From NCBI GenBank assembly GCA_964016885.1, contig OZ024740.1:248248001-248312000 (forward strand): a DNA stretch of 64,000 nucleotides. The letters run 5' to 3'. The translations under genes were made by a program, and so were the position numbers. Shown piece by piece: positions 7,277-10,118 of this stretch. Source of the stretch: Eledone cirrhosa. Its lineage: Eukaryota. The notes beneath the pieces were generated by a model. The model was not told where the DNA came from, did not search any database, and saw nothing but the letters and a program-made list of their open reading frames with translations. How positions within the stretch are numbered: position 1 is the stretch's first letter; each line of letters starts with the position of its first letter.

Positions 7277-7588
7277 ATAACGAGGGGGCAGCCATCATAT
7301 ATATATATATATATATATATATATATATATATATATATATATATATATATATGTATATATATATATATATATATATATTTATGTGTATATATATATATGT
7401 ATATATATATATGTATATATATATATATATATATATATATATATATATATATATATATATATATATATATATATACATATATATATATATATACATATAT
7501 ATATATATATATATATATATATATATATATATATATATATATATATATATATATATATATATATATATATATATATATATATATATAT
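7277..7588. repeat. (TA)n microsatellite (one of dozens of (TA)n/(CA)n/(TC)n tracts in the window)
   Basis: Direct read. These tracts produce the [12 protein letters not shown] spurious ORFs. Confidence 0.98.
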
Positions 7589-7654
7589 AAAAGACGTAAA
7601 ATAAGAAAATTAAAAAAAATTTTTTTTAAATTAACTTACTTACTAAAATTTTCA

Positions 7655-7734
7655 CTCCAACTAATTAGTTTCTGCAATGGGATAAAGACAGTTACGTAAT
7701 AAACTGTTGAGAATTTCATTGCGTCATCAGGGAG
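7655..7734 (-). ncRNA. Type I hammerhead (family H3)
   Basis: Reverse complement of 9178-9257. Confidence 0.85.
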
Positions 7735-8195
7735 GTCTATTCTCAGCTAAGTCGCCAGGCAATGCGCGGACACTGGGGATTCATATAAAAATAATAATAA
7801 TTCGGTAAATGGAACAGCTAACGGGGGCTGGATTCCATGCACTGAAAATCTCGCTGTCACTGGTCAAAAGATAGATTCTAAAGAATCAATCACGTGACAC
7901 TGAGGCTAGTCGGTAGGAGTGGGATGGTAAGATGACAGAAGCCTACTAACACACCAAAAAATTTAGTAGTGGTTTTGGCAGGTTTGCTCGACAAAGTGAT
8001 TTGGAGATAAATATAGAGAATTTAGTATATCTACTAACATATGCGTGCAGATGTACGCTAATGTCAGCAAATACACAGGTTATGTCATAGTACCTAGGTG
8101 GTTCAATGCAGGAGGATGCAGAACAATAATATAAAAGACTCAAAATAAGAAAATTTTAAAAAAATTAAAAAAAAATTAACTTACTAAAATTTTCA

Positions 8196-8275
8196 CTCCA
8201 ACTAATTAGTTTCTGCAATGGGATAAAGACAGTTACGTAATAAACTGTTGAGAATTTCATTGCGTCATCAGGGAG
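8196..8275 (-). ncRNA. Type I hammerhead (family H3)
   Basis: Same motif, second unit. Confidence 0.85.
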
Positions 8276-8735
8276 GTCTATTCTCAGCTAAGTCGCCAGG
8301 CAATGCGCGGACACTGGGGACTCATATAAAAATAATAATAATTCGGTAAATGGAACAGCTAGCGGGGGCTGGATTCCATGCACTGAAAATCTCGCTGTCA
8401 ATGGTCAAAAGATAGATTCTAAAGAATCAATCACGTGACACTGAGGCTAGTCGGTAGGAGTGGGATGGTAAGATGACAGAAGCCTACTAACACACCAAAA
8501 AATTTAGTAGTGGTTTTGGCAGGTTTGCTCGACAAAGTGATTTGGAGATAAATATAGAGAATTTAGTATATCTACTAACATATGCGTGCAGATGTACGCT
8601 AATGTCAGCAAATACACAGGTTATGTCATAGTACCTAGGTGGTTCAATGCAGGAGGATGCAGAACAATAATATAAAAGACGTAAAATAAGAAAATTTAAA
8701 AAAATTTTTAAAAAATTAACTTACTAAAATTTTCA

Positions 8736-8815
8736 CTCCAACTAATTAGTTTCTGCAATGGGATAAAGACAGTTACGTAATAAACTGTTGAGAATTTCAT
8801 TGCGTCACCAGGGAG
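8736..8815 (-). ncRNA. Hammerhead (H3) with core mutation CTGGTGA, probably inactive
   Basis: Plus strand reads tcaccag instead of tcatcag (A6G). Confidence 0.75.
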
Positions 8816-9177
8816 GTCTATTCTCAGCTAAGTCGCCAGGCAATGCGCGGACACTGGGGATTCATATAAAAATAATAATTCGGTAAATGGAACAGCTAGC
8901 GGGGGCTGGATTCCATGCACTGAAAATCTCGCTGTCAATGGTCAAAAGATAGATTCTAAAGAATCAATCACGTGACACTGAGGCTAGTCGGTAGGAGTGG
9001 GATGGTAAGATGACAGAAGCCTACTAACACACCAAACAATTTAGTAGTGGTTTTGGCAGGTTTGCTCGACAAAGTGATTTGGAGATAAATATAGCTGTTC
9101 CATTTACCGAATTATTATTATTTTTATATGAGTCCCCAGTGTCCGCGCATTGCCTGGCGACTTAGCTGAGAATAGAC

Positions 9178-9257
9178 CTCCCTGATGACGCAATGAAATT
9201 CTCAACAGTTTATTACGTAACTGTCTTTATCCCATTGCAGAAACTAATTAGTTGGAG
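9178..9257 (+). ncRNA. Type I hammerhead (family H3)
   Basis: CTCC-CTGATGA-c-GCAATG...ACAGTT/AACTGT...CATTGC-a-GAAA-CTAATTAG-TT-GGAG. Palindromic stem III ACTAATTAGT. Confidence 0.87.
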
Positions 9258-9721
9258 TGAAAATTTTAGTAAGTAAGTTAATTTTTTAAAATTCTTTTAA
9301 AATTTTCTTATTTTACGCCTTTTATATTATTGTTCTGCATCCTCCTGCATTGAACCACCTAGGTACTATGACATAACCTGTGTATTTGCTGACATTAGCG
9401 TACATCTGCACGCATATGTTAGTAGATATACTAAATTCTCTATATTTATCTCCAAATCACTTTGTCGAGCAAACCTGCCAAAACCGCTACTAAATTTTTT
9501 GGTGTGTTAGTAGGCTTCTGTCATCTTACCATCCCATTCCTACCGACTAGCCTCAGTGTCACGTGATTGATTCTTTAGAATCTATCTTTTGACCAGTGAC
9601 AGCGAGATTTTCAGTGCATGGAATCCAGCCCCCGCTAGCTGTTCCATTTACCGAATTATTATTATTTTTATATGAGTCCCCAGTGTTCGCGCATTGCCTG
9701 GCGACTTAGCTGAGAATAGAC

Positions 9722-9801
9722 CTCCCTGATGACGCAATGAAATTCTCAACAGTTTATTACGTAACTGTCTTTATCCCATTGCAGAAACTAATTAGTTGGA
9801 G
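9722..9801 (+). ncRNA. Type I hammerhead (family H3)
   Basis: Same motif 544 bp downstream. Confidence 0.87.
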
Positions 9802-10118
9802 TGAAAATTTTAGTAAGTAAGTTAATTTTTAAAAATTTTTTTAAAATTTTCTTATTTTACGTCTTTTATATTATTGTTCTGCATCCTCCTGCATTGAACC
9901 ACCTAGGTACTATGACATAACCTGTGTATTTGCTGACATTAGCGTACATCTGCACGCATATGTTAGTAGATATACTAAATTCTCTCTCTCTCTCTCTCTC
10001 TCTCTCTCTCTCTCTCTCTCTCTCTCTCTCTCTATATATATATATATATATATATATATATATATATATATATATATATATATATATATATATATATTTA
10101 TATATATATATATATATT

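Follow-up and report, generated by a model that had tools for sequence, protein, structure and literature searches.

Animal non-LTR retrozymes are ORF-less, low-GC tandem units that carry one type I hammerhead ribozyme each and occur in thousands of copies, and a circular RNA intermediate and mobilisation by Penelope-like elements (PLEs) have been proposed for them (PMC7229834; bioRxiv 10.64898/2026.07.22.740005). EN+ PLEs of the Hydra clade target (TA)n and leave partial tandems, an adjacent inverted 5′-truncated copy, a tail of 30–40 nt at one end and a hammerhead near the 3′ end (PMC8557442; PMC3846280). The tail has been termed optional and attributed to endonuclease resolution, the inversion has been attributed to self-priming (PMC8557442; PMC3846280), and the origin of tandem, inverted and tailed PLE insertions was called an open problem (PMC8557442). 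The minimal hammerheads of PLEs combine a short helix I (4–5 bp), a long helix II, an additional residue that separates positions 9 and 10.1, a G10.1–C11.1 pair and a palindromic helix III; dimer action and a circle model have been proposed for them (PMC4209133). In vitro, the Poseidon PLE of Anolis cuts both DNA strands and extends them from a pair of RT start sites that are internal and set the tail. According to the available text of that study, RNA downstream of the start sites is required, the protein is a predicted dimer, the hammerhead is dispensable for insertion, and priming proceeds without homology (PMC11167929).

Here we describe two arrays of one protein-free unit that lie back-to-back, with head-to-head arms on the minus and plus strands, in a 64-kb stretch of Eledone cirrhosa DNA (the window). 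The family to which they belong is a non-LTR retrozyme on all features tested, i.e. tandem type I hammerhead units, the lack of an ORF, low GC and consecutive intact hammerheads. New, as far as the literature searched shows, are this family, the rule that one arm ends at a site A and the other at a site B, and a hairpin after each end; the retrozyme kind and the inverted, tailed PLE footprint were already known. Our main reading, to which we assign a probability of roughly 70%, is that the hammerhead repeat is pasted into (TA)n by a Hydra-clade PLE enzyme through double target-primed reverse transcription on a monomer circle. The part that invokes two primings by a PLE is firmer than the part that invokes the circle.

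Layout of the insertion and its hammerheads

The features of the insertion are collected in Table 1. The arrangement given in the preliminary description, with ~2.8 minus-strand and ~1.6 plus-strand units diverging at ~9094, five hammerheads and outer ends at different unit positions, was borne out by our measurements. At 2,401 bp, the insertion is the second longest among the 55 pairs that combine one A end and one B end (A+B pairs). Full units in the window measure 540, 541 and 544 nt, with a mutual identity of 97–98% and a GC content of 0.36–0.37, i.e. below 50%. We found no coding capacity in the unit, as the frames of at least 80 aa that overlap it derive from microsatellites only. Folding of the 544-nt monomer beat 100 out of 100 shuffles (z = −5.1). 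The left (TA)n at the same time forms the 3′ terminus of an unrelated repeat, which in its other copies consists of variable runs of TA/ATGT, and neither an empty site nor a target-site duplication could be defined for the window insertion, its two flanks being different repeats. The right flank (10134–10600) is one of two copies, 83.5% alike, of an RT-type repeat; the other copy lies at 31464–31934.

Table 1. Positions of the insertion, its ribozymes and its ends in the window
Feature	Position	Strand	Remark
(TA)n, left target side	7297–7589	.	abuts minus arm
Left arm, 2.79 units	7585–9094	-	runs from about unit position 187 (5′ end) to site A, unit position 74 (3′ end)
Type I hammerhead, intact core	7655–7734	-	cut predicted to fall between 7659 and 7658
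Type I hammerhead, intact core	8196–8275	-	core and stem III motif
Type I hammerhead with A6G at 8808	8736–8815	-	reads CUGGUGA; unit position 476
Head-to-head junction	9092–9094	.	3-nt microhomology/overlap TAG
Right arm, 1.64 units	9095–9985	+	5′ end at about unit position 383–386; 3′ end at site B (~188–192)
Type I hammerhead	9178–9257	+	GUU, predicted cut after 9253
Full cut-to-cut monomer, 544 nt, no ORF	9254–9797	+	between predicted cut sites
Internal copy of site A (UUUUAUAU)	9320–9327	+	about half of all arms end here
Bulged hairpin after site A, GUUC-stem-UU-GAAC	9332–9355	+	predicted RT docking site
Internal copy of site B (CUCUAUAU)	9438–9445	+	the other half or so of the arms end here
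Bulged hairpin after site B, UCUC-stem-UC-GAGC	9449–9470	+	predicted RT docking site
Type I hammerhead, intact core	9722–9801	+	core and stem III motif
(CT)26	9981–10033	+	apparently an extension of the CTCT that the element carries at site B
(TA)n, right target side	10033–10117	.	beyond (CT)n

The five hammerhead cores of the insertion are matched by five stem III motifs, and consecutive intact hammerheads occur on the minus (7734 and 8275) as well as on the plus strand (9178 and 9722). The copy at 9178–9257 consists of a 4-bp stem I, CUGAUGA, an unpaired C, a 6-bp covarying stem II with a long extension, an extra A, GAAA and a 10-nt palindromic stem III. A scan of the window with Rfam gave no hammerhead match at the gathering score. 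The A6G core change reported for one unit in the preliminary description is present and, as far as substitutions go, is private to that unit; it is likely a post-insertion mutation. Across 102 haplotypes, stem II was Watson–Crick paired in 593 of 612 cells compared with 493 ± 6.5 (maximum 515) after shuffling, in an alignment anchored on the core and with a control that ignores relatedness; both-side changes were seen at three pairs. The unpaired C opposite A was present in 101 and the G10.1–C11.1 pair in 96 of the 102 haplotypes, stem I was 93–98% paired over its 4 bp, CUGANGA was kept in 164 of 185 copies, and the ribozyme fold persisted across units down to ~70% identity. The unit RNA is predicted to cleave itself.

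The 10-nt palindrome of stem III is calculated to form a two-copy duplex of −9.0 kcal/mol compared with a lone hairpin of +1.5 kcal/mol, so that pairing between two copies appears plausible, in line with the earlier idea that adjacent units provide each other's partner. The features listed above for PLE minimal hammerheads all recur in this ribozyme, which differs from them in three ways: its stem II extension is longer (51 nt), G12 is preceded by an additional A, and the palindrome measures 10 nt (PMC4209133). Unlike the published animal retrozymes, the family combines a PLE-type hammerhead with long stem II and 10-nt palindrome with full units of 522–594 nt, which are down to 70% identical to the window unit. 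Its insertions are dispersed, reach up to ~5 units and are mostly head-to-head, whereas inverted arms, fixed ends and docking hairpins are not described in the available text on those retrozymes (PMC7229834; bioRxiv 10.64898/2026.07.22.740005). Cleavage and circles have been demonstrated for published retrozymes (PMC7229834), whereas the present family is known from DNA sequence.

The hammerhead family comprises at least 11,600 copies genome-wide. A ribozyme 29-mer gave 4,189 exact matches and a disjoint pattern for other subfamilies gave 7,424, with 0 matches for each reversed control; scaling by the number of matches per cluster suggests ~7,500 loci. Loci were taken from the first 100 matches listed for each pattern, all at the start of contig C1. 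The unpicked loci comprise all 59 clusters of the first list (young) and 40 of the 67 clusters of the second (older), two more second-list clusters lying in loci already taken; 20 extra loci chosen by eye as long or odd were counted apart. In the 99 unpicked loci we counted 65 inverted blocks; of the single arms, 32 are bounded by TA or CT on either side, and the flanks of 8 are unrelated. At five loci (L045, L055, L092, L131, L132) copies were inserted in the (TA)n tails of other copies, producing tail-to-tail pairs and stacks of subfamilies. Whole retrozyme insertions were duplicated together with their flanks at L130 (inverted) and L133 (direct), probably as passengers inside another element. 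A block at unit positions ~297–327 (window ~9550–9580) with GTCACGTGATTGATTC is for the most part conserved, even in subfamilies that are as little as 70% identical; its word, which we take to be E-box-like, may act as a putative internal promoter element.

Template of each insertion

We compared the units of 77 young loci after dropping homopolymer columns. Units diverged by 1.24% if they came from the same arm, by 1.22% if they came from opposite arms and by 5.86% if they came from different loci. At columns covered by at least three units, 88 rare alleles were scored: 72 occurred in one unit, six in some units and 10 in all units of the locus, the latter being present in all 3–5 units. Mosaic haplotypes were repeated unchanged in every unit of a locus, as expected if a monomer is excised by the hammerhead and then re-multimerised, and one arm (L049) switches haplotype mid-unit. 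Each insertion was likely copied repeatedly from one monomer RNA, probably a circle. The preliminary description had suggested multimeric cDNA from a circular RNA or a long tandem transcript; the single monomer haplotype per insertion lends support to multimeric cDNA, with a circle as the most likely template. The six alleles restricted to some units and the switch in L049 count against this reading, and what the two arms have in common might mark a sub-family instead of a single molecule.

Units are joined exactly across the ribozyme in 183 of 190 junctions and 4 of 160 arms stop there, read-through counts that are inflated by the finding of loci via the ribozyme motif. No pile-up of 5′ ends at the cut site, as expected from linear monomers with template jumps, was detected (3.6 compared with 2.2 stops per 1000 nt). 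The exact junctions and the read-through would fit equally well an uncut linear multimer whose source would be either a master array or a tandem copy of young age, and which the same enzyme would copy from the same priming sites, with the hammerhead as a passenger. Such a template is unlikely in our view. Divergence between arms favours no register, being 0.76% in register and 0.78% and 0.84% off register. The many distinct or mosaic haplotypes that are uniform per locus would require repeated monomer bottlenecks and re-multimerisation, and the persistence of the ribozyme fold at ~70% identity also speaks against a mere passenger. Points in favour of the linear multimer are that the anole PLE used unprocessed RNA in vitro (PMC11167929), that three arms (L057, L139, L145) begin exactly at the cut site, as from a partly cut linear multimer, and that six rare alleles are shared by only some units of a locus.

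Outer ends and the pairing of arms

Mixed-strand clusters among the first 100 matches listed were all diverging for both disjoint patterns (14:0 and 16:0). Among 173 arm ends of at least 40 nt in the two unpicked sets, 157 lie at one of two sites, 75 at A and 82 at B, with 16 elsewhere; site B is 118 nt downstream of site A. Almost all classified ends (197 of 199) run into (TA)n. The outer ends, which the preliminary description had called arbitrary, are thus two fixed sites, one per arm, and only the inner 5′ ends vary. Head-to-head pairs numbered 69, of which 67 came from the unpicked sets and the other two were the window insertion and L004. Of these, 55 were A+B, none A+A, none B+B, and 14 had an unclassified end. 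The set picked by eye adds 12 A+B pairs, four unclassified pairs and one A+A pair (L129), which was chosen for looking like an exception. With A and B about equally common, the chance of 55 out of 55 A+B pairs under independent choice is about 2^-55.

The insertions show an inverted 5′-truncated head-to-head copy, a tail at one end and a (TA)n target. This is the published PLE footprint, which the preliminary description had overlooked. Hydra-clade PLEs differ from the family in having an ORF and a tail of 30–40 nt, compared with 118 nt here, and to what the available text on them reports our measurements add the strict one-A-one-B rule and the hairpin after each end (PMC8557442; PMC3846280). 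We found no description of this pairing rule or of the hairpin in the literature searched, which consisted mostly of papers free of subscription and, for PMC11167929, of the available text.

In 14 of the 55 A+B pairs the arms are not nested, which means that neither can have been copied from the other, and arm lengths are uncorrelated; we therefore conclude that there were two primings and no fold-back. For Penelope elements of rotifers, self-priming or fold-back of a single cDNA or of an antisense template has been put forward (PMC3846280). As the cause of the inversion here it is accordingly very improbable, and it leaves the second arm's use of the other fixed site unexplained. The junctions hold what can be said for it. 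Inserted bases are found at 16 of 67 A+B junctions (picked loci included). The remaining 51 overlap by 3.2 nt on average compared with 0.7 nt by chance, and six of them overlap by 7–28 nt at self-complementary spots, two on the ribozyme palindrome. In 38 of the 51, however, the overlap is only 0–2 nt.

Two primings are also known from L1 twin priming, where two target ends prime cDNA and an inverted, 5′-joined insert results. The present family resembles L1 in this product and differs in that it has neither poly(A) nor a definable target-site duplication, that both primings are internal at fixed sites, and that its two arms cover overlapping parts of the template, with lengths that can surpass one unit in either arm.

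The (CT)n tract depends on the template at site B. Where the template of a B end reads TCTCT, the tract follows in 19 of 29 cases, compared with 5 of 47 for ATCT and 0 of 24 for TCTTT; among A ends it follows 0 of 101. Because (CT)n continues the element's own sequence at site B, it is not a microhomology target, as the preliminary description had supposed, and we read it as a product seeded by the element with no pre-existing target. At one locus (L079) a 9-nt piece of site B is repeated four times, which suggests RT stuttering; later DNA slippage may contribute to (CT)n.

Homology between retrozymes and PLE pseudo-LTRs has been reported and local amplification suggested (bioRxiv 10.64898/2026.07.22.740005), so that the units might be pseudo-LTR remnants of a coding PLE, amplified locally as a satellite by unequal crossover. 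This account is already largely refuted and retains a very small probability. No arm is joined via its 5′ end to an ORF or a coding PLE in the 99 unpicked loci, frequently both arms are multimers that terminate at fixed sites, and mutations confined to one unit (72 of the 88 rare alleles) have not been homogenised. The preliminary description had also considered that the unit might occur elsewhere only as single copies attached to a coding PLE; the layout is instead family-wide, and no examined copy is joined to a coding PLE. An assembly artefact, also raised there, can practically be dismissed: although none of the short-read contigs listed (one sample) bridges the window junction, seven other head-to-head joints of the unit are present in such contigs, the units bear private changes, and the same layout recurs with different junctions at dozens of loci.

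Candidate enzyme and proposed mechanism

Sites A and B each lie 4–5 nt ahead of a predicted bulged hairpin. Its lower stem of 3–4 bp is of the type YUC/GAR, the bulge sits on the 3′ side and comprises 2 nt led by U, and the upper stem varies. A descriptor of this form, composed after viewing these sequences, has exactly two matches in the unit, both just past A and B, compared with 0.37 per shuffled unit, and exactly two in 420 nt of the end of a Hydra element, past its two ends. The bulged hairpin after both ends is thus a cis element common to the unit and an intact Hydra-clade PLE of this genome, with the two hairpin types in reverse order. For the second-end hairpin, the Hydra family is the only coding family where it is testable. 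A first-end hairpin with other stem letters occurs in three more hammerhead families, and one family, tested by a single copy, has none. The TA run starts mostly 8–9 nt ahead of the hairpin in the unit family, 5–8 nt in the Hydra family and 3–7 nt for the first hairpin of the three further families. No clear read-through past the second end was found in two other hammerhead families. Between hairpin A and site B, the tail is filled by a long predicted hairpin (window ~9375–9435), and other families likewise have a hairpin just before the second end.

The flanks of unit loci hold other hammerhead families with the same two-end layout, one of which leads into an 821-aa ORF. This ORF has 81 matches that are 97–100% identical, many with full open frames. 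A Pfam search did not recognise it; its assignment to the Hydra clade rests on the RW, DKT, CxCx5C and CxxC motifs described for Hydra (PMC8557442) and on a weak BLASTP match to another PLE RT (E 9e-6). Extended homology of the unit to a coding partner was not found in seven hammerhead families and one further PLE family, and local alignment of the A–B region to the seven families was at about shuffle level (best 18/500, not significant). The link to Hydra, which we hold to be likely, accordingly rests on the ~22-nt hairpin, the TA targeting and the layout.

According to our main reading, read-through transcripts of a multi-unit copy would be cut by paired hammerheads into monomers, which would be ligated into circles where the lone hammerhead is inactive. 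A two-subunit RT-endonuclease would bind the two hairpins and cut both (TA)n strands. One DNA end would then prime at site A and the other at site B via UAUAU pairing, with some stuttering that yields (CT)n. Each RT would round the circle for ~430 nt on average and up to 3.9 units, and repair would join the two cDNA ends head-to-head, mostly with 0–4 nt overlap; a single-arm copy would result where only one end extends. Cleavage, the RNA circle and the partner enzyme of the repeat are steps that we infer from sequence. Extension of both strands from two start sites would work as in the anole PLE in vitro (PMC11167929). The start sites of Poseidon lie in one AC-rich stem-loop without target homology as far as the available text describes them, whereas here UAUAU gives each site homology to (TA)n, and a separate hairpin lies downstream of each (PMC11167929). 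The priming of the anole PLE without homology and its dispensable hammerhead are points against our reading.

A more specific version is possible, though we hold it only tentatively and would not bet on it. Here a dimeric Hydra-type RT-endonuclease would clamp both hairpins of one 544-nt circle and roll it from the two DNA ends that a single double-strand cut creates. Two RT subunits that start at two hairpin-set sites would then account for the inverted repeat of PLEs, long without explanation, and for their tail on one side, and telomerase-like stuttering would seed new microsatellite at the ends. The family offers thousands of short, young records of a PLE-type insertion reaction; it supplies two start sites and the rule by which they pair, a candidate docking hairpin of 22–24 nt, and a candidate enzyme of which intact copies exist. 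If the proposal is true, the hairpin pair would be a minimal signal for trans-mobilisation by a telomerase-related RT.

Two other coding sequences were considered as partners and rejected. A 796-aa PLE with a CX4CxxC linker and a microsatellite-like 3′ end has no homology to the unit, and the matches beside it at L123 and L127 belong to retrozyme insertions that are older and independent of it. In L079, a 603-aa RT/GIY-YIG frame proved to be no more than a neighbour. The latter locus contains, at 411–3155, a PLE with RT and GIY-YIG whose inverted pair of arms adjoins the retrozyme copy. In a young PLE family at L100–L128, a 796-aa RT/GIY-YIG frame overlaps with a 422-aa frame upstream of it, the 3′ end is long, degenerate and microsatellite-like, and no hammerhead was noticed in the stretches viewed. 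The window itself holds three more type I hammerheads on the plus strand (20800, 27275 and 39628), which belong to two other families and are each followed by (TA)n within ~110–180 nt; the family at 20800 has the bulged hairpin after its first end at other loci. Finally, between two (TA)n tracts at 1040–4696, a 22-bp tandem motif at 1389 recurs as its reverse complement at 4166, an arrangement that resembles another inverted insertion.
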